Source of the DNA: Candidatus Micrarchaeota archaeon
Lineage (GTDB): Archaea; Micrarchaeota; Micrarchaeia; Norongarragalinales; SBBD01
Reading direction: 5' to 3'
NCBI GenBank assembly: GCA_018819225.1
Contig: JAHJQN010000007.1
Coordinates: forward strand, 1 to 64,000
DNA length: 64,000 bases
The notes under the pieces were generated by a model, which did no database searches, was not told where the DNA came from, and saw nothing but the letters and a program-made list of their open reading frames with translations. Both the position numbers and the translations under genes were made by a program. Of this stretch, positions 33,884 to 44,201 are shown piece by piece. Numbering within the stretch: the first letter of the stretch is position 1; each line of letters begins with the position of its first letter.

Positions 33884-34765
33884 CTACATCGCTTTCAAAC
33901 GCTGGATGCGTTCTTGAATGGGGGGATGCGTGCTGAACCACTTGCTGATGTTGTCGCGCTTCAACGGATTGGAAATGAACAGATGGGACGTGGCATTCGA
34001 AGCGTTCTTCATTTGAACCGAGTCCTTTTCAATCTTCTCGAGTGCGCCAGCCAGTCCTGCCGGATACCTCGTGAGCTGCGCAGCGCTCGCGTCCGCCATG
34101 AACTCGCGTTTCCGGGACACTGCCATCTTAATCAATTGCGCGAAAATGGGGGCGAGGATCGCGAGTGCAATACCGAGAATGACGACGTAGACGCTTCCGC
34201 GTCCTTCCCGGCGGTTGCCGCCGCCCCAAATCGTGGAGCGCAGGAGAATGTCGCTTAAAATGATGATGCTGCCCGCGAACACGGTTGCCAGCATCATGAC
34301 CTTGATATCATAATTACGGATGTGCGAGAGCTCATGCGACAACACGCCCTCCAGTTCCAAGCGGTTCATGCGCTTCAATAACCCGGTGGTGACGACCACG
34401 ATGGCGTGTTGCGGATCCCTACCCGTCGCGAACGCGTTCATCGCGTCCTCATCCATCACGTACAAGCGCGGTTGCGGGATTCCGGCGCCTAATGAAAGCG
34501 CTTCAATGGAATGGTAGAGGTACGGGAACTCTTCCTTCGTTACGGGACGGGCTTTCGTAACCGAGAGCACGATTTTGTCGCTCTGGTGGTACATGACGAG
34601 CGTGAGAATGACGGCGATGACGACCGCGAACACGAACCCGAAGTTGCCGAGTCCGAGAACGAACCCGAACGCGTACGCGATGAGGAATAGCAGGAGCAGG
34701 AAGGAAGCAAACAAAAAGTAGGTGCGGCGTTGGTTGCTTTGAATCTCGTCGTAGAAAGAGGCCAT
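33884..34765 (-). CDS. htpX: HtpX-like M48 zinc metalloprotease
   Basis: NAFATGR, HELSH, SRKREFMADA, FSTHPP..ERI. Confidence 0.93.
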   Translation of the reverse strand: MASFYDEIQSNQRRTYFLFASFLLLLFLIAYAFGFVLGLGNFGFVFAVVIAVILTLVMYHQSDKIVLSVTKARPVTKEEFPYLYHSIEALSLGAGIPQPRLYVMDEDAMNAFATGRDPQHAIVVVTTGLLKRMNRLELEGVLSHELSHIRNYDIKVMMLATVFAGSIIILSDILLRSTIWGGGNRREGRGSVYVVILGIALAILAPIFAQLIKMAVSRKREFMADASAAQLTRYPAGLAGALEKIEKDSVQMKNASNATSHLFISNPLKRDNISKWFSTHPPIQERIQRLKAM

Positions 34766-34866: not shown

Positions 34867-34985
34867 GCTCCCTTCGTCTAGCTCGGTCAAGGACTCTGGC
34901 CTTTCGACTTTCCTGCTCCAAACATGCGCATGGGAATGGGAAAAAAAGAAAGCCAAAAACACGGGTTCAAATCCCGTAGGGAGCA
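34867..34985 (+). tRNA. tRNA-Glu(TTC) with a 44-nt intron at canonical position 37/38 (34907-34950)
   Basis: GCTCCCT/AGGGAGC acceptor stem, D arm, anticodon TTC at 34903-05, T arm ACGGG-TTCAAAT-CCCGT; BHB-like motif with CTTT/AAAG central helix; TTATTAAA promoter. Confidence 0.9.
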
Positions 34986-35018
34986 TGTTCAAATCCTAAA
35001 CGAAGCATTGCCCGTAGA

Positions 35019-36071
35019 TTATTTACTTGATATGATTCGCTCGAACATTGCAGATGCCTCTTTATCGGACATGTGCTTTGGCGAAGACTTCATTAAAAAT
35101 GGGCACACGTCTTTAGCGTTACTTTGTTTACTATTATCTACAAGAAATTGAGCGACTCGAATGGCATCGATAATGGTGCCAGCTCCATTGATGCTGATTT
35201 CATCTTCAATTACTGAATGGATTGAAATCGGAGTTTTCCCGAACAATTCTCCTTCAATTAACAAATCAACTCGTTTGTGACCAGAAGGTTTTCCAGTATA
35301 TTGAAACGTTACGGATGGTCTTGCGTCTTTTTCGTCCAAATATTTTGAGAGTGCCTCTCGTTTCGAGCTCTCTTTTGTTTTCGACCTATGTAGTAAATTA
35401 TAATGGTCTGCATTCCCCCCTTGATTTTTTTGCTCCGATTTTGTGATCCGAATACCTCGCAGTTTTAAAAATTCTAAAAGAAGACGGTTCAACATCGTTG
35501 CACCCATTTGACTTTTTGTATCGTCACCTAATAAGACGAGATCACGTTCTTCGAATCGTTTTCTCCATTTAGAATCAGTAACTAAAGGGGTAGGAATGCA
35601 ATTGATATAGCTGCATCCTGCATTCAGCGCAGCTTCTGCATACCAACGGGTTGCCACATCACTTCCCGAGGGCACAAGATTAACAACCACTTGCGTATTC
35701 GTATCTTTGAGAATTTTAACAACATTCTCAACAGGAGCATTGCTTTCAGAAATGAAACTGTCGCGCATCTTCTCATGAATACCGTCAAGGGTAGGACCTC
35801 GATGAACTACCGCAGGGTGTTCCGTTGGAGATGTTATTTCACGAGTGACATTCTTTCCTAACGAAATGGCGTCCTGTAACTTTTTCCCCACCTTTCGTCG
35901 GTCTACATCAAAAGCCGCCACAAATTTAAGGTCGTTGACACGATAATTACCAATCAAGGGATGCATTAAGCCAATTTTTTCGTCGGGATTTTTCGCGTAG
36001 TACGAGACTCCTTCAACTAATGCTTTTGCTAGACTCCCTACTCCAACTATCGCCACCCGAAGGTTATCCAT
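35019..36071 (-). CDS. Myo-inositol-1-phosphate synthase family protein
   Basis: RVAIVGVG, FVAAFDVD..KVGK, VHRGPTLDG, INCIP, GDDTKSQMGAT, GGNADHYNL; visibly AT-richer than core genes. Confidence 0.85.
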   Translation of the reverse strand: MDNLRVAIVGVGSLAKALVEGVSYYAKNPDEKIGLMHPLIGNYRVNDLKFVAAFDVDRRKVGKKLQDAISLGKNVTREITSPTEHPAVVHRGPTLDGIHEKMRDSFISESNAPVENVVKILKDTNTQVVVNLVPSGSDVATRWYAEAALNAGCSYINCIPTPLVTDSKWRKRFEERDLVLLGDDTKSQMGATMLNRLLLEFLKLRGIRITKSEQKNQGGNADHYNLLHRSKTKESSKREALSKYLDEKDARPSVTFQYTGKPSGHKRVDLLIEGELFGKTPISIHSVIEDEISINGAGTIIDAIRVAQFLVDNSKQSNAKDVCPFLMKSSPKHMSDKEASAMFERIISSK

Positions 36072-36177
36072 AGTGATTAACCAAACGACAATTACTATTA
36101 ATAAAAGTTGAGATGCTAGTCTTTCTCAACGGGGGTATTGTAACTTGATGTTTAAGACGCGTCGGGAGCGCTTAAGC

Positions 36178-36477
36178 CTAGTTCCGTAAGGCGATGGCAA
36201 GCATTTTCTCGAGGTCTCGGTAGTCGTTCTTGCGCTCGAGAAGGCAGGCAATAATGATGTTGGGCTTGATGACCGCGTAGATTAAGCGGGTTTCCTTCCC
36301 TTCCAGGCTTAAACGGACGCGGAATGCCCGCAAAAACCGCTTGGAATGGATGCGCTTGAAGCGATAAGGGTTCTCTTTGACCAAGTCGATTTTGCTGCCG
36401 ATGAGCTTCCGAGACTCCTTCCCGAGCTTTTTTACCTGATCCAAAAATAGCCGAGTGGTCCTGATTTGGAAGCTCAT
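36178..36477 (-). CDS. RelE/ParE-like toxin
   Basis: F..QVKKL...I..KI..V..NPYRFK...FRVR...RLIY; ATGA-coupled to the upstream gene. Confidence 0.75.
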   Translation of the reverse strand: MSFQIRTTRLFLDQVKKLGKESRKLIGSKIDLVKENPYRFKRIHSKRFLRAFRVRLSLEGKETRLIYAVIKPNIIIACLLERKNDYRDLEKMLAIALRN

Positions 36478-36728
36478 GCGGAAAGCGCCGCCTTCAGCTC
36501 TTCTTCACTTGCAAGCTGCTTACGTGCGATGCTGGTTTCCAAGATGTGGTCGATCAACGCAATCTCTATATCAGAAAGGGTTTCGTCAAATTGGCTTTTC
36601 TCGAAAACCTTTTCGCGCACGCTATCGTAAATCAAATCCTGGAGGTTTCGGTAGCCGAAGGTGTTCGCGTAGCTCCTTGCAGCCTTAAAGAGCTTCCTCG
36701 GGAATTTCAAGTTCACTTGGATAGCCAT
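36474..36728 (-). CDS. Putative RHH antitoxin
   Basis: MAIQVNLKFP..L..AA...GYRNLQDLI.D.VREK ribbon-helix-helix pattern, acidic tail; start trimmed. Confidence 0.7.
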   Translation of the reverse strand: MAIQVNLKFPRKLFKAARSYANTFGYRNLQDLIYDSVREKVFEKSQFDETLSDIEIALIDHILETSIARKQLASEEELKAALSA

Positions 36729-36865
36729 AGATAGCTTGGGATACCGTAGTATTAAAAGGATTGCGGAGGGCTTGTTCCCGTGAACGGAAGATTTGAAGTG
36801 CTCCTTGTTTCCCGTAGGGAGCATCCTTCTTGAAGCGAAGTTGGCGCAACGTTTTCTTAAGATGC

Positions 36866-37618
36866 TCACTTCTTTATCGCAACGTGTTGAATAAAGTCCG
36901 CTCCGTATTTCGCAAAAGGCCGCTCGAAATCCCCGAACGTTTCGATCTTTGAAAACCCCGCGTTGGCGAGCAATTCAAGCATTTCATTTGTGCGAATCGG
37001 ATAGATGTCGAGAAACCAGTGGTGTTTTTTCCCGAAATAGCTGAACCGAATCAAGTCGTCTCGCCGAACCACCGGTATGACCTCGAAGTTCTCCCCGCAA
37101 TAAACGAATTTGTGCTTGCTCTTGTAACCCGTGTCGAGAATCATATCGTAGTTTCGGTGGTCAATGATGAGCATTCCGCGCGTTTTCAGCAAACGGTGAA
37201 TGCTAGAGAGTACGGATTCCCTATCCGGTCGGTCGAATAAGTGAGTAAACGAATTCCCGAGAAAAATGACGGCGTGGAAGCTGGCGGGTTTGAAACACGA
37301 ATCAAGTTTTTTCCAGTCCGCACGGACACAACGGAGTATCACGCGTTCCTTGGCTGCGTTATATTTTGCTCGCTCAAGCATGTGAGGACTCGCGTCTAAA
37401 CTCGTGACTTCAAACCCTTCCTTCGCCAAACGGATGCTATCGTAACCGGTTCCGCAGGCGACATCCAAAACATTCACGGCGTTCATACGACGCAAATGCT
37501 GAATGAAGAACGATCGCTCACCTCGCTTTCTTCGCCTCCAATCAATAAAGGAATCCCAAGCGTTGGCAACGTGTCGCGGGTACTGTTTCCAACCATGAGA
37601 CTTGCCCATATCGCCCAT
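36866..37618 (-). CDS. Class I SAM methyltransferase, glycine/sarcosine N-methyltransferase-like
   Basis: WDSFIDW..R...E, LDVACGTG, LGNSFTHLF, IDHRNYD.IL..GY..KH...YCG, DFIQHVA. Confidence 0.8.
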   Translation of the reverse strand: MGDMGKSHGWKQYPRHVANAWDSFIDWRRRKRGERSFFIQHLRRMNAVNVLDVACGTGYDSIRLAKEGFEVTSLDASPHMLERAKYNAAKERVILRCVRADWKKLDSCFKPASFHAVIFLGNSFTHLFDRPDRESVLSSIHRLLKTRGMLIIDHRNYDMILDTGYKSKHKFVYCGENFEVIPVVRRDDLIRFSYFGKKHHWFLDIYPIRTNEMLELLANAGFSKIETFGDFERPFAKYGADFIQHVAIKK

Positions 37619-37722
37619 AACGATCTAAACAGATAGTAGGTATTGGAAGAATATCAAGTTATTTGGAAGAAAAATAGGCAAAAGGATAAATAGGCTTAAT
37701 GATTTCATTATTCTGACCACAC

Positions 37723-38709
37723 ATGCAGGAAAAGGCCATTCAAACCGTGCGTCCCGATTTGAGGGACAAGAAATTACTGAGGGAAATCGATTTTCATGCC
37801 CGTTTACCCTATTCCGAGCTGGCGCGAAGAATTGGAACAAGCAAGCAGGGCGCCGAATACAAGTTCAAGAACTTACTAAAGCAGGGGGTCATAAGGGGCT
37901 CCTACCCCGTCGTTAATGTTCCAAAGCTAGGATACCTGTATTGCAGATTGCTCGTGACGTTGCAGGGAGTCTCTGAAATACAAATCGAACGCATCGTGGA
38001 GGATTTGAAAAAGGATCCAAACGTATTCTGGCTGTTCACGATGGAAGGACGATACGACCTATTGGTGGTGTTTTGGGCTAAAAACGTATCCGATTTCAAG
38101 AGAATGGTCACGTCATTTCTTGAAAAACACGGCAAACATGTGAAAAGGAAGGTCGAAACGGTAACGACTGACGTATGCCACTTGTCCCATCGATACTTAT
38201 TGGAAGAAGGAGACAAACAGGAAGTAAGCATTCGCGAAACGGACGAGCGAATTAAAATCGATGAATTGGATAAGCGAATCCTGACCGTATTGGCTTCGGA
38301 TGCCCGAATTCCGTTAATTCAGCTGGCTTCGGCAGTTGATGCATTACCAAAAACGGTCGCGTATCGAATGAAACGCATGGAAAAAGAAAAACTTATTTTA
38401 TGCTATCGACCAATCATTGACCATTCCGTTCTTGGGTTGACGTATTACAAACTATTTGTCAACTTGAACTCGTACTCGCTGGTACAAATGCAGACCATCA
38501 AAAACTGGGTGAAGCAGAACAAATACGTGACGTACATCGTCGAAGGCTCGGGACTACCCACGGACTTGGATCTGGAGCTCATTGTTCCTTCGAATAAAGC
38601 CCTTTTCGAATTTATCCGCCAATTGAGGTTTAAATTCCCGAGGATCATCGGCGACTATTCGACTGTAGTATTCAAAGAAACAAGGAAAGTGCGGTATCTG
38701 CCGTTCTGA
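37723..38709 (+). CDS. Tandem Lrp/AsnC-family transcriptional regulator
   Basis: Two HTH-RAM units (DLRDKKLL..ARLPYSELA; DELDKRIL..DARIPL); GRYDL. Confidence 0.85.
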   Translation: MQEKAIQTVRPDLRDKKLLREIDFHARLPYSELARRIGTSKQGAEYKFKNLLKQGVIRGSYPVVNVPKLGYLYCRLLVTLQGVSEIQIERIVEDLKKDPNVFWLFTMEGRYDLLVVFWAKNVSDFKRMVTSFLEKHGKHVKRKVETVTTDVCHLSHRYLLEEGDKQEVSIRETDERIKIDELDKRILTVLASDARIPLIQLASAVDALPKTVAYRMKRMEKEKLILCYRPIIDHSVLGLTYYKLFVNLNSYSLVQMQTIKNWVKQNKYVTYIVEGSGLPTDLDLELIVPSNKALFEFIRQLRFKFPRIIGDYSTVVFKETRKVRYLPF

Positions 38710-38945
38710 TGACATCGTTAGCAACGCTCGGATTCGGATATTTCTTCGATTACCGCACGGATGAGGGCGCGATTTGCACTTTTTTCACTTGAGTTGCAAG
38801 TTCCGTAGGGAGCGGGATCCATTTTTTCAATAGCGTAGAAGTCGAATTCCGCAGAGCAATAGGCGGTATTCAACCCAATGTATAAATACCAAAATCCGAT
38901 TCGGGTTATGAAAGTGAAGTAAGTATACGGAGGAGGGGATAACAT

Positions 38946-39284
38946 ATGAAGAAATTTATGGTAGTATACAAGGCACCCGCGTCCGCAATGGAAAAAATGC
39001 ACGATTCGAGCCCGGAAGAAATGAAAAAGGGAATGGAGGCTTGGATGGTTTGGGCGGAAAAATGCGGTAGTGGCTTAGTCGATATGGGAACCCCGCTTGG
39101 AAACGCACAAAAACTAACCGAAACAGGGAGTTCGCCTAGTGTCAATAATGTGATGGGGTATTCCGTTTTGCAAGCAGAATCAATGGAGGGCGCAAAGAAG
39201 TTATTGAAAGGCCATCCTCATCTTGGCTGGGGTAAAGGGTGCGAAATAGAAGTGCTCGAGTCCCTTCCGAAGCCCGGAAAATAA
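38946..39284 (+). CDS. YciI-like protein
   Basis: MEAWMVW...LVDMGTPLG...GYSVLQAES...LLKGHPH; GGAGG RBS. Confidence 0.75.
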   Translation: MKKFMVVYKAPASAMEKMHDSSPEEMKKGMEAWMVWAEKCGSGLVDMGTPLGNAQKLTETGSSPSVNNVMGYSVLQAESMEGAKKLLKGHPHLGWGKGCEIEVLESLPKPGK

Positions 39285-39319
39285 ATAGTAGTTCGCATTG
39301 AGTAAAAACGGCATTTCAA

Positions 39320-39715
39320 CTACTTGAAATAGGTTTTCAGCGGTTCCCAGTAGTGATCGTGCCAACCTTGCGAGATGGAGGCGTGACATTCGGAAGGTAC
39401 TCCGGACTGCGTAAATGTAAGTTTCGTTCCGCCGGTCACTTTTTTTAAGGAAAACACGGCTCGCGAGTAATGGTCTTCCGGCCAATGATCCATCACGCAC
39501 ATCCAAGACTGCACGATTTTTTTGTCTGGAATCAACTCCAAGTTGGTGCCGACGAGGCCGTCCTCATAAGCGGAAAAGGGCCCGCCTACCTTGCGAGTCA
39601 TTTTTGCCGGCGATCCCGTAAATTTGGCGTGCTGGCGGGAATCCACGAGGGCCTCATAGACCGCATGCGGAGAAGCGTTGATAAGTACCGTTTGGCGAAT
39701 CGACTTGGTTTTCAT
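39320..39715 (-). CDS. SRPBCC/AHSA1 domain protein
   Basis: ASPHAVYEAL, GGPFS, KKIVQSW, TKLTFTQSGVP, GWHDHYW. Confidence 0.88.
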   Translation of the reverse strand: MKTKSIRQTVLINASPHAVYEALVDSRQHAKFTGSPAKMTRKVGGPFSAYEDGLVGTNLELIPDKKIVQSWMCVMDHWPEDHYSRAVFSLKKVTGGTKLTFTQSGVPSECHASISQGWHDHYWEPLKTYFK

Positions 39716-39875
39716 AAACTAAACACCCCCGATCATTCGAAACGTCGTAAGGACGCTAATACCGTTGAGGTTTGAGTATATAATGAATCAGTTTAGAATG
39801 ACTTACGATTGATAATGTCCAAGACAAGTGCGCATTCAAAACCCTTAAGTAGGGGAGGTAAAATACGTACTCGTT

Positions 39876-41138
39876 ATGCGAATGAAAGCTGGGCGTTGGA
39901 TGATCATCAGCTTGTTTTTACTGGGATGCATTCAAGGAGATCCGGCTGCAACGACGTCCTCCATTCAAGAAACGGGCACGCCGTTACCCACGGAGGAAGT
40001 GACGGTTCAGGCCACGAGCACCATGCAAACAACGCCCGCGGTTTCGGCGACTCCGGAAATCACTCCTACAATAAAAGAAACGCCTTCACCGGAACCCGCA
40101 CGCGATCCGGACGCCGAGTACTATTACTGGATTCAAGAAGAGTATGCGGATGTGGATTTGCCGAGTTGCGAGGGAAAGGCGTTTACGCACCCGCCCTCCG
40201 GTTGGAACGACTTCGTGAAACTGATTCCGCTCGGAAATCTTTTCCCGCCGGAGCACACGATTCCCACGCACCATATGTACATTCGCTTGGAGTACGCGAA
40301 GCAGGTCGATTTTCAAGCCATTGGGGATATCCGAATCCTTGAAATCGTCCGCTACCGTTACCCCGAGCAAAACGATGAAGATTACATGTTTACGTTTGCG
40401 CTCTGCGATCAGGTATACGGGTATTTCATTCACATCCGCCAACTATCGGACAAGGTCATGAAAGCGTTTGATGAAGGAGCATGCGAAGAAGACAGTTACG
40501 GCGACGGAAAATACCAGACGTGCACGAGAAAAGTGGATGTGGAAGTAAAAGGTGGGGAGTATTTGGGCCGGGTCGGAAAGAAGGACACTGGAGGATACGA
40601 TCTCGGGGTGTACGACTTGAGGAAGCCATTGAAATGGGCGAACCCCGCGAGAAATCAGGGACGCGCGATGTTGTTGGTTTGCCCACTGGATTATTACGCG
40701 GACGGGGTTCGGAAACAAATGTATGAAAAGATCGAGAGGGAAGAAGAGCCGCGTTGCGGGAAAGTGAATCAAGACGTAAACGGAACGTTGAAAGGCAATT
40801 GGTACCATGAGAGCGCGAACCCGGAAGGCCATGGCGAGTGGAACACGGAATTGGCGTTTGCCGAAGACAATAACGAGCCCACCACGTACGCGGTATCCAT
40901 AGGAGGAATATTTACGGACGCGGGGCGGGTTGATTTCAAACCAAAGCATTCGGGAACCATTAATCGGGCGTTTGAGGAAGTAAAACCAGATGGAAAAGCG
41001 TATTGCTATGAAGGCGAAGGGAAGAACGGAAGCGTTATCATCGAAATGGAGAGCGAGACCACGTTGAAGATCGAGAAGAAGATGGGATCGTGCGGTTCAA
41101 GTCCCTCGTTCAATGCGCCGTACACGTATCATCGGTAG
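39876..41138 (+). CDS. Lipoprotein with Thr/Pro linker and a degenerate M23-like domain
   Basis: LLGC lipobox; HTIPTHHMY, FIHI, VEVKGGEYLGRVG, DLGVYD, VCPLDYY. Confidence 0.6.
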   Translation: MRMKAGRWMIISLFLLGCIQGDPAATTSSIQETGTPLPTEEVTVQATSTMQTTPAVSATPEITPTIKETPSPEPARDPDAEYYYWIQEEYADVDLPSCEGKAFTHPPSGWNDFVKLIPLGNLFPPEHTIPTHHMYIRLEYAKQVDFQAIGDIRILEIVRYRYPEQNDEDYMFTFALCDQVYGYFIHIRQLSDKVMKAFDEGACEEDSYGDGKYQTCTRKVDVEVKGGEYLGRVGKKDTGGYDLGVYDLRKPLKWANPARNQGRAMLLVCPLDYYADGVRKQMYEKIEREEEPRCGKVNQDVNGTLKGNWYHESANPEGHGEWNTELAFAEDNNEPTTYAVSIGGIFTDAGRVDFKPKHSGTINRAFEEVKPDGKAYCYEGEGKNGSVIIEMESETTLKIEKKMGSCGSSPSFNAPYTYHR

Positions 41139-41139
41139 A

Positions 41140-42591
41140 CTATCCCGGCAGCTTATCCACGTTTAAAAGATTGGTCCATGTCTTTCCGCCATCCGCGGAC
41201 TTCCAAACGTACGCATAATTCGCTATCATGAATACGGTTTTCGAATCGTCGGGATGCCATACGATGTGGGACACGTAGACCTTCGCGTCCCGCACGCCAG
41301 GAGGAAGGGGGCTGAGTTCCTGCCAGGTCAGGCCGCCATCCGCACTTTCCATTAAACTATTGCGCACTAAGGTATAGCCAAGAAGGTGGTTACCGGACGC
41401 GTCGTGCGGGTCGTATCGCGCCACATCCAAATAGAACGGGGTTTCATGGAACGTGCTGCCGCCATCCAACGTCACGAAACTTTTCTGATCGTCGTACGTC
41501 GAGCCTTCATCAAAACGCAATGGTTTCACAAAAAAGTGATTGAATTGATTAAAGGAAACATCTCCCCCGAAAATCGATCGGTATTTCTCGGGAAGGTTTT
41601 TGGCGAGCGCAGACCACGACGCGCCTCCGTCACGGGAAACCACGGGACCGAATTGCACGGGAAGCATCACTTCCAAATGAGAGCCGTCTGGAGAAACGGC
41701 GTGGTCGTGGGAATTCGTCAATGCCAGCACGTGCCGTGAATTTTCCGGGTTCACGAAAATGGCGATTCCTTGAAGACCAACCAACAGACCGGTGGGAAGT
41801 TCATCCCACGTCTCGCCGCCGTTTACGGTTTTGTAAAAAACCCCGTCATAGACTGTTTTCCAGTTGGGATCAGGATCCGAAATGGTGGGAGCGGTACTGT
41901 CCACGCCATAGTAAATGATCTGCGGATTCGTTGGATCGAATGCCAGTGCGCCCGTTCCGCCGGCGTTCATGCGATCTTTAAGGAGTTGGTGCCATGATTC
42001 GCCGACATCCAAGGACTCCCACACCCCCGCGGTTTCGGAATAGGGATCGTAAATGGTTCCGGTAGACGTATCCGCGCGGGCAAACAATATGCGATCGGAA
42101 TCCGTGGGATCGATGATCATTTGGCCGACGTCTCCATAACAGTATTTGCCCGGGTTTTCGGAATCGGGATACGCGCGCAAACCGTTGTTGATCGATTTCC
42201 ACGAAATACCGCCGTTGGTGGTTTTCAAAATGCCGGCGCCCTCCATTCCGATATACATTATTTGCGGATTCTTGGAATCAATCACCAAGGACTTCCCGGG
42301 ATGGAACGACTGGCGTTCTTGAGAGCAAGGCAAGCCGTTCTCCATCAAATGCTGGGAGCTGGGGCTGTACGTGGGAGACGACGCTCCCGACGGTGAAGGG
42401 GCTAACGAAGGGGAAGGGGTTTCGGAAGCACGTAGGGTGGGTTCGGGAGAAGGAGTTAATGAAGGCGGGAGTACCGTAGGAGTTTGAGTCGGTGAGGAAG
42501 AAGGGGAATCGACGGGAGGCGATTGAACGCAACCAAATGCAAGAAACGCGATGAGAAGAATCAGCCAAGAACGACGATGCATGAAAATCAT
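41140..42591 (-). CDS. Lipoprotein with BNR/Asp-box beta-propeller
   Basis: AFGC lipobox, Ser/Pro linker, repeated (S/T)xDGGxTW boxes. Confidence 0.8.
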   Translation of the reverse strand: MIFMHRRSWLILLIAFLAFGCVQSPPVDSPSSSPTQTPTVLPPSLTPSPEPTLRASETPSPSLAPSPSGASSPTYSPSSQHLMENGLPCSQERQSFHPGKSLVIDSKNPQIMYIGMEGAGILKTTNGGISWKSINNGLRAYPDSENPGKYCYGDVGQMIIDPTDSDRILFARADTSTGTIYDPYSETAGVWESLDVGESWHQLLKDRMNAGGTGALAFDPTNPQIIYYGVDSTAPTISDPDPNWKTVYDGVFYKTVNGGETWDELPTGLLVGLQGIAIFVNPENSRHVLALTNSHDHAVSPDGSHLEVMLPVQFGPVVSRDGGASWSALAKNLPEKYRSIFGGDVSFNQFNHFFVKPLRFDEGSTYDDQKSFVTLDGGSTFHETPFYLDVARYDPHDASGNHLLGYTLVRNSLMESADGGLTWQELSPLPPGVRDAKVYVSHIVWHPDDSKTVFMIANYAYVWKSADGGKTWTNLLNVDKLPG

Positions 42592-42677
42592 CCAAATGAA
42601 AGACTTCGCCGGAACTTAAAAACGTGCGGAGGTCTTGGAAAAGAGATGTTTTTATTCCATGAAAGAGAAGTGAACGT

Positions 42678-43778
42678 ATGCGGCAGGTAAAGAAAAGAAA
42701 AATCGCGAAAGTGGAAAGAAAGGAGTCGCGATGGCCAAACCCTCAAACGGTTCCCATTATCGCGATTATTTTCCTGTTGTTGCCGTTTCTCGCCATGGCG
42801 ATGGCGTGGTATGGGCAAACGGGAGCGCCGTGGGGATCCGATCTCGCCGTGCAGATCGCCAAGTTTCAGGGATTAACCTACGAAGAGCTCGTGGCGTTGC
42901 CGTACGCGCACAATTACGAGGCCTTTGAAGTCAACGGCGAGTTGCTGGTCAGCGACGAAAGCCGGGCGGCGTGGAAATCGTATTATGAAGGGTATCCGAG
43001 CGGGTTGACGTTCATTCTCCTGTTTCCGCTGTCCCTGCTATTTCCGTTGGAGTTGGCCGCGAGTCTCGCGGTGTTTATTGCGTTATTCATTGTGGCATTA
43101 TTGGTTTACGAGGCGAGCGGACGCGAATGGATGGCGCCGTTGTTGTTGGTATGGGGAAGCAAGTACGTGCTCTCGAATTCCATTGGAGGGGGGTTGCCGC
43201 TGGTTCTGATCAGCGCGTTTGTGCTGGCGTTTCTGATGGTGAAGAATACTGGTTTTCGATTGCTTCTCGTGCTGCTCGGTGCGTTTACGCACCAATGGGG
43301 CGTGTTCTTCATGGGCGCATTGATGGGCGTATCGTTGCTCATGCGATGGATGGGAACAGGAGCCGCACTGGCGTTGCCGACACCGTTGCAGGCGCCCTTT
43401 GAACGCCTTCAATTCTTTTCGAATACGCATGCGGGATCCGCATTGCTCATGTTTCCGGCCGGGGCACTCGCACTGTTCGAGCTGAGAACGTTGTTTAAGG
43501 AAAATAAGGAAGCGGAATTGTGGATTTTTGCGGTTGGAATGGGAACCATTGCGGCGTTGTGGAACGAAAGAACGTTTTTGATGGTGATTCCCGTGCTGGC
43601 GGTATTGGCGGGAAAGGCGTTTCGTAAACTACCGGTTTGGGGAAAGCGCGCGGTCTGGATATACTTGCTGGCGTTCTCCATTTACAACATCGTGAGTTTG
43701 ACGGATTTCTTTACGGGCATGCTATCCGCTTTCCGGAATGAAGAATTCCTGTGCCGAGTGCTCGAGCAGTGCAAATGA
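42678..43778 (+). CDS. Multi-pass membrane protein, GT-C glycosyltransferase-like
   Basis: GSD after TM1, YPSGL, AFTHQ, ERT and ~9 TM segments. Confidence 0.55.
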   Translation: MRQVKKRKIAKVERKESRWPNPQTVPIIAIIFLLLPFLAMAMAWYGQTGAPWGSDLAVQIAKFQGLTYEELVALPYAHNYEAFEVNGELLVSDESRAAWKSYYEGYPSGLTFILLFPLSLLFPLELAASLAVFIALFIVALLVYEASGREWMAPLLLVWGSKYVLSNSIGGGLPLVLISAFVLAFLMVKNTGFRLLLVLLGAFTHQWGVFFMGALMGVSLLMRWMGTGAALALPTPLQAPFERLQFFSNTHAGSALLMFPAGALALFELRTLFKENKEAELWIFAVGMGTIAALWNERTFLMVIPVLAVLAGKAFRKLPVWGKRAVWIYLLAFSIYNIVSLTDFFTGMLSAFRNEEFLCRVLEQCK

Positions 43779-43784
43779 AAATCG

Positions 43785-44201
43785 TCAGCGTCTCCGGGCG
43801 CCTTTCCTGCGCCTCCAATTATGGAACTCGTGAAACTCGACTTCCACTTTCTCCGCAGTATCCGAACGCTTCTTGAACGCGTAAATGAAGATCACGAGCG
43901 AGATGAGGAGAAGCGAATCCGTCCATGCCCCTGCACACGTTCCGCCAAAACATATTTGGGCTTCACGCAAAAACAATGCGAGGGCCATGATGCCGATCCC
44001 CAAATAGAACACGAGGGAAATGCGCCAGTCCCAACGCACTTTTCCGCGGCGTTTCTGGGAATAGACGACGAAAACGTAAATTAAAAGATACAACAATACG
44101 AGTAGGGAAACGACGAGCGTCAACGCGCCGACCAAATCAAACCCCGAGGCCACGGAAACCATAGACATCTCTCGACCAACCCGGGAAGCGATTCCCGGCA
44201 T
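43785..44201 (-). CDS. 3-TM membrane protein
   Basis: Hydrophobic ORF with own TTTTTATA promoter. Confidence 0.65.
   Translation of the reverse strand: MPGIASRVGREMSMVSVASGFDLVGALTLVVSLLVLLYLLIYVFVVYSQKRRGKVRWDWRISLVFYLGIGIMALALFLREAQICFGGTCAGAWTDSLLLISLVIFIYAFKKRSDTAEKVEVEFHEFHNWRRRKGARRR

Follow-up and report, generated by a model that had tools for sequence, protein, structure and literature searches.

How do short, unrelated genes come to stand in tandem behind a single tRNA gene, each unit closed by a copy of that tRNA's 3' end, with no recombinase among them? This arrangement is found downstream of tRNA-Glu(TTC) in a 64,000-nucleotide stretch from Candidatus Micrarchaeota archaeon (assembly GCA_018819225.1, contig JAHJQN010000007.1, positions 1 to 64,000; hereafter the window), i.e. 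contig C6 of a 1.37-Mb Micrarchaeota genome that is 90 % complete (G000 below). An original prediction, made from the sequence alone, had described an integron-like cassette array. With a probability of about 0.7, we read the locus instead as a stack of three minimal, non-autonomous integrative units resembling cis-mobilizable elements (CIMEs), accreted in tandem via a tRNA-targeting tyrosine integrase family.

Junctions and units behind tRNA-Glu

The 11-nt 3' end of the tRNA-Glu occurs three times in the whole genome (2.7 Mb, both strands), always at this locus, i.e. the motif is not common genome-wide. The copy at 36810-36824 matches the tRNA at 15 of 15 positions, and its 15-mer is found genome-wide only there and in the tRNA, even when two mismatches are allowed. 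Together with the 11/11 copy at 38803-38813, which had likewise been predicted, this makes the junctions at 36810 and 38802 certain. The more degenerate copy at 36151-36169 matches at 14 of 19 positions, exactly as had been stated, and its local score of 10 is attained by 0.36 % of random 50-nt windows. Since the single best genome-wide match of the arm upstream of it is a junction of the array at tRNA-Met (19/26, same register), junction 1 (36159) is probably real; a search of the 68 genomes of the order with this arm returned no further att site. All three accepted copies are intergenic. The original prediction had placed a fourth intergenic copy at 39736-39756, and with it a possible fourth unit of yciI and SRPBCC genes, but the score of 7 is attained by 17 % of random windows and this copy is therefore attributed to chance. 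A 13/19 match at 39836 is also within chance, lone 12-mer matches in other genomes look like chance and have no tRNA context, and a 131-aa open reading frame (ORF) spanning 36810 is an over-extension, as its ribbon-helix-helix (RHH) homologues start at 36728. The non-tRNA motif said to be shared by two junctions is recovered in junctions 1 and 3 (15/26 in register, p 0.001-0.003 before 30 tests), but partly mimics the T-loop. A degenerate second T-arm/acceptor copy directly 3' of the tRNA-Glu, which the original prediction had missed, is present in G000 (17/22, score 12) as well as in a sister-genus genome, G004 (L035:2174-2195).

The junctions delimit units of 1185, 653 and 1991 bp, with a GC content of 0.41-0.50 vs 0.52. 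Profile searches found no integrase or other recombinase, transposase or replication gene inside them, in line with the prediction, and neither an integrase remnant nor a pseudogene was found; the ORFs are intact and end 9-42 nt from the core. The gene labels proposed for the cargo hold by profiles, with weak matches for RelE, RHH and YCII, and metabolic roles in inositol phosphate synthesis and glycine methylation may be suggested from profile similarity below curated cut-offs only. TATA-like AT runs, predicted upstream of each unit, are visible before ino1 and the RHH gene but unclear for the divergent methyltransferase/Lrp pair. The cargo is patchily spread, with ino1 in 3, the methyltransferase in 9 and RelE in 16 of the 68 genomes.

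tRNA-Glu sites and integrases of relatives

In the sister-genus genome G001, a small membrane-protein gene directly follows the tRNA-Glu, i.e. the site is empty, whereas G004 carries two different units (1.04 and 0.57 kb) exactly at the repeat, with the tRNA end on one side and the same neighbour gene on the other, and its sequence past the last copy aligns with the G001 sequence past the tRNA. Differences between species thus break at the repeats, which bears out their interpretation as recombination junctions. The sole DNA similarity between the inserts of G000 and G004 is the junction-3 arm (78 % over 51 nt), the cargo being different. When the 68 genomes were searched for this arm, at a stringency that gives roughly the same number of chance matches as the reversed control, one further match was obtained, in a genome of another family (G047), with the tRNA-Glu end following at the exact spacing. 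There, five integrase-less units of 0.47-2.4 kb stand behind tRNA-Glu(CTC) (L285, G047:C21), carrying a beta-helix protein, an ArsR/permease block and small unknown genes, so that the arm is found in G004 and G047 too, each time on unrelated cargo. Because relatives carry different genes between the same arms, the units are best regarded as integrase-less passengers of a tRNA-targeting integrase family.

In the G047 array, four junctions have one common arm and one has the junction-3 arm of the window; the arms of unit 4 are apparently mismatched, which suggests a possible rearrangement. Exact arm scans of metagenome and viral contigs gave no match and a GTDB scan gave G004 only, no array was seen at 20 metagenome tRNA-Glu loci (mostly distant and short), and a neighbour-gene homologue search with five htpX look-ups revealed no new downstream loci.

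The 11-12-nt core is also the one used by the integrase-bearing elements of the order. In nine of them the distal and proximal arms make up a dyad along a single fixed diagonal (11.6/20 vs 5.8 for non-cognate pairs, p 4e-5), centred on the T-stem/acceptor junction and with neighbouring diagonals at background; unit 3 of the window reaches 11/20 on it (shuffle p 0.002). When inverted repeats were tested at free positions, integrase-less units could not be told apart from background. In G040, a 4.6-kb element with a 406-aa integrase occupies tRNA-Glu(TTC) with the same short core. At the tRNA-Leu of G022 (L221, G022:C14), a unit with a 400-aa integrase and a DsbA-like gene is followed by a 250-bp unit and a 954-bp NYN unit; both of these have arms related or near-identical to those of the integrase unit (23/23 and 23/24 for the NYN unit), while the interiors of the integrase and NYN units share almost nothing. 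Arms, not interiors, are shared with integrase-bearing units in G002 as well. Of the arrays seen, that of G022 is the fullest integron-like case. The attR is doubled at the end of two integrase-bearing elements, where the cores are spaced by 69-78 bp (L224 +9457/+9535; L107 +8246/+8315). At tRNA-Thr, the 29 aa that match the tail of an integrase from G001 are due to the tRNA overlap and are no remnant.

These comparisons support the existence of a candidate trans-acting integrase family in the order, mobilisation in trans having been predicted, but neither a resident XerA nor an intact integrase was found: the 90 % complete G000 assembly showed no XerA-like dimer resolvase and no match to PF02899 (the Xer N-domain), dif sites not having been searched for, and PF00589 gave no match in G046 and its congener G047 (82 % complete). 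A single tyrosine recombinase was found in G000. It overlaps a tRNA-Ser end, scores 56 bits where the cut-off for XerA is 220, and its alignment with full-length homologues begins at residue 115-136, i.e. it is N-truncated and devoid of the N-terminal domain. As this is the only recombinase found and units 1 and 2 have no dyad, the array is probably dormant in its host. An adjacent autonomous element is present in G022 and G011, and absent from the window array.

Taken together, we infer a route that involves circular intermediates, a particular enzyme acting in trans and a defined insertion order. Each unit would have been a small DNA circle of one or two genes plus a short attP, made of the last 11-12 nt of the tRNA-Glu flanked by a dyad of about 20 bp. 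A tyrosine integrase of about 400 aa, of the kind carried by Micrarchaeota elements, might then have come in trans from an element that was visiting or has since been lost, and recombination at the T-stem/acceptor junction would have restored the tRNA and pushed earlier units outward.

Layout of the locus and other tRNAs of the host

The features are listed in Table 1. The tRNA-Glu is matched by Rfam RF00005 (34867-34985, 45.8 bits), with the 44-nt intron placed after position 37; ARAGORN calls it Arg, a miscall. Intron-less orthologues in the same place beside htpX in relatives are called tRNA-Glu(TTC). The variable region extends to about 43784, i.e. over 8.8 kb in total, a reach that the original prediction had missed. 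No significant tRNA copy or recognisable junction was detected over the 5 kb of the distal block between the last junction and the ancestral neighbour. Its GC content is host-like toward the distal end, its YCII gene is a weak profile match next to an AHSA1/SRPBCC gene, and a search of 10 genomes of the family did not find its 366-aa gene; the genes of this block are possibly older, ameliorated units.

Table 1. Features of the tRNA-Glu locus (positions in the window)
Feature	Position	Strand	Remarks
htpX (M48 peptidase)	33884..34765	-	conserved left flank; adjoins tRNA-Glu throughout the family
tRNA-Glu(TTC)	34867..34985	+	intron 34907-34950; 3' 11-12 nt = integration core (attL)
Degenerate tandem copy of tRNA T-arm and 3' end	34987..35008	+	
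Unit 1 cargo, inositol-phosphate synthase (ino1, PF01658)	35019..36071	-	41 % GC
Junction 1	36131..36170	+	arm 36131-36158, homologous to arm of tRNA-Met unit; degenerate core 36159-36170
Unit 2 cargo, RelE/ParE-like toxin	36178..36477	-	weak profile matches (E 0.015)
Unit 2 cargo, ribbon-helix-helix antitoxin candidate	36474..36728	-	weak profile match (E 0.004)
Junction 2	36783..36824	+	core 36810-36824, exact over 15 nt; arm bears only a weak resemblance to junction 1 of G004 (14/26)
Unit 3 cargo, S-adenosylmethionine (SAM) methyltransferase, glycine/sarcosine N-methyltransferase-like	36866..37618	-	256 bits, cut-off 350
Unit 3 cargo, tandem Lrp/AsnC regulator	37723..38709	+	also paired divergently with the methyltransferase in other genomes
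Junction 3	38762..38814	+	conserved arm 38762-38801 (21/26 G004, 23/28 G047) and core 38802-38813; dyad with 36829-36848
Distal accessory block	38946..43778		YCII, SRPBCC, 420-aa lipoprotein-like, BNR-repeat, 366-aa membrane protein
Small membrane-protein gene	43785..44201	-	directly after tRNA-Glu at the empty G001 site; bounds the variable region on the right

The pattern recurs at other tRNAs of G000, where the original prediction had proposed to look for it: more tRNA 3' ends are copied downstream than upstream of their own tRNAs (19 vs 4), and there are three-unit arrays at tRNA-Thr, tRNA-Leu and tRNA-Met and a two-unit array at tRNA-Ser(CGA). Eight of the 19 downstream copies close mini-duplications of 50-110 bp. 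Contig C7 (~35.5-37.5 kb, minus strand) has a 1.9-kb single-gene unit, encoding a 425-aa membrane protein, between tRNA-Thr-like cores; its arm is that of the tRNA-Thr array, and no intact tRNA was detected alongside.

Hairpin inserts of 50-110 bp duplicate the 3' end of at least nine different G000 tRNAs (C1:168090, C1:145601, C2:202369, C2:202602, C2:102805, C3:87832, C5:71408, C7:91821 and C7:14811). The hairpin also forms a 47-bp tandem array at two contig ends (positions 1-180 of the window and the end of C1), and other hairpin families behave in the same way in G001, G002, G004, G010 and G025. The end of C3 and the start of C5 carry the same intron-containing tRNA, at which the two contigs probably join, and the break there may reflect variation at that tRNA.

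Competing explanations and significance

Several observations weigh against a stack of small units integrated as such. The most proximal junction is the most degenerate, contrary to a simple newest-first order. The fixed diagonal was derived from the same nine elements on which it was scored, the dyad scores of units 1 and 2 (5 and 7 of 20) are at background, and integrase-less units as a class are weakly above background (6.8 vs 5.6, p 0.027). No integrase-bearing element with the junction-3 arm was found, homologous cargo in other genomes mostly stands without tRNA copies, and the comparison of the empty (G001) and filled (G004) sites is at the species, not the strain, level. Moreover, no circle, joint or empty site, nor any sign of excision or reordering, was seen in runs X1 (the likely source) and X2, searched as contig data, which drop rare forms. 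The metagenome run containing the stretch is from groundwater; X2, at a depth of about 2, has the same sequence, with one contig crossing junction 2, and a second assembly is identical to the locus across 10 kb. Since they are present in other genomes without tRNA copies, the cargo modules are not confined to the tRNA route; the toxin-antitoxin (TA) pair directly follows tRNA-Thr in two other genomes and also stands alone in many intergenic sites.

Alternatively, each unit might be what is left of a larger plasmid or provirus with an integrase, shortened by deletions in place, and would never have been mobile in the form now seen. This explanation, which we consider unlikely, differs from our reading only in whether the small units move as such. 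It would fit the visible decay of the tRNA-Ser element of G000, whose integrase is without about 120-135 N-terminal residues, the loss of the dyads in units 1 and 2, and the mismatched arms of one G047 unit, as expected from deletion across a junction; CIMEs have been described as arising by a three-step route of this kind (PMC5704250), and a loss of the integrase following integration has been noted for archaea (PMC8371274). Against it stand the absence of pseudogene or integrase debris from units that correspond to functional modules, i.e. a TA pair and a methyltransferase-Lrp divergon, the closure of three unrelated cargos in two families by the same arm, and the G022 units, with near-identical arms around unrelated interiors. 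Target duplication by the small hairpin family, by repair or by homologous recombination, with unrelated genes inserted between, appears the least probable of all: although the hairpin inserts do duplicate tRNA ends and the TA pair does occur alone, the Glu junction arms have no hairpin motif and match tRNA-Glu arms elsewhere as well as the dyad geometry of integrase elements, and the G000 assembly yielded no Y1 transposase, resolvase or reverse transcriptase.

Membership in the integrons, i.e. a resident IntI or XerA shuffling cassettes via folded single-stranded attC-like sites, is largely refuted and we regard it as very improbable. Archaeal integrons and clusters of attC sites lacking integron-integrases (CALINs) exist (10.1101/2022.02.06.479319), and the locus is like them in its array of one- or two-gene units, cassette size, TA cargo and lack of a nearby recombinase; the position of the G022 integrase in the proximal unit also fits. 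However, no attC R boxes were found at any junction on either strand, hairpin fold z-scores range from -1.9 to +0.5 (all weaker than -2), and the integrases score 17-48 bits vs the IntI (TIGR02249) cut-off of 265 and 56-108 vs the XerA cut-off of 220. In contrast to integrons, IntI, attI and a common promoter are missing, the array is anchored at a tRNA end, genes lie in both orientations with promoter-like regions of their own, and arms vary between units and tRNAs.

The integrative units that we favour are closest to CIMEs, which accrete in tandem with elements that are integrative and conjugative (ICEs) and with integrative and mobilizable ones (IMEs) in Streptococcus (review PMC5704250). 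As in CIMEs, integration and transfer genes are absent, attL and attR are kept (cores in all three units, the dyad in unit 3 only) and the units are stacked at a tRNA 3' end. Unlike CIMEs, they are archaeal, measure 0.3-2.4 kb with one or two intact genes and no conjugation context, often have no autonomous element in array or assembly, and have arms that are common across families on unrelated cargo; no parent ICE/IME-type element with the Glu arms was found. With tRNA islands they share the displaced 3' tRNA fragment as a boundary, direct orientation, a short core and re-use of the site, and a species-level empty site exists, but they have no integrase of their own, which Islander requires together with at least 2 kb; the dyad centre of the Micrarchaeota elements agrees with its J sublocation, i.e. 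the T-stem/acceptor junction (PMC4383910). Class II integrases and tandem integration are known in archaea (PMC8371274, PMC6563490), where the smallest cryptic element described for thaumarchaea measures 2.6 kb and encodes an integrase; the window units are smaller and have none. Prochlorococcus tycheposons (10.1101/2020.12.28.424599) show the same serial tRNA integration, with partial tRNA copies between elements and older material outward, but encode an integrase themselves, often with genes for replication, and are much larger.

As a process, serial integration at the ends of tRNAs is already known, and the departures from the published cases consulted are the minimal size, the absence of debris and the conservation of arms across families on unrelated cargo. 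Our literature search, in an incomplete library and thus as weak evidence, returned no paper on such arrays in DPANN archaea or Micrarchaeota. It is tempting to speculate, although we hold it less probable than its opposite, that Micrarchaeota possess a dedicated tRNA-anchored gene-cassette system, in which genes captured between minimal attP arms of about 60 bp pass from lineage to lineage as integrase-less circles, mobilised in trans by integrase elements that visit the host. If true, this would be a functional analogue of integrons based on double-stranded att recombination and invisible to island finders that require an integrase. Regardless, the locus defines short att sites and candidate integrases open to direct test. 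Units without an integrase and below 2 kb are discarded by standard island finders, so that their share of the accessory genes in archaea is probably undercounted, and for DPANN archaea with small genomes, whose assemblies often show no intact recombinase, such units may be a route to the gain of single genes or two-gene modules.

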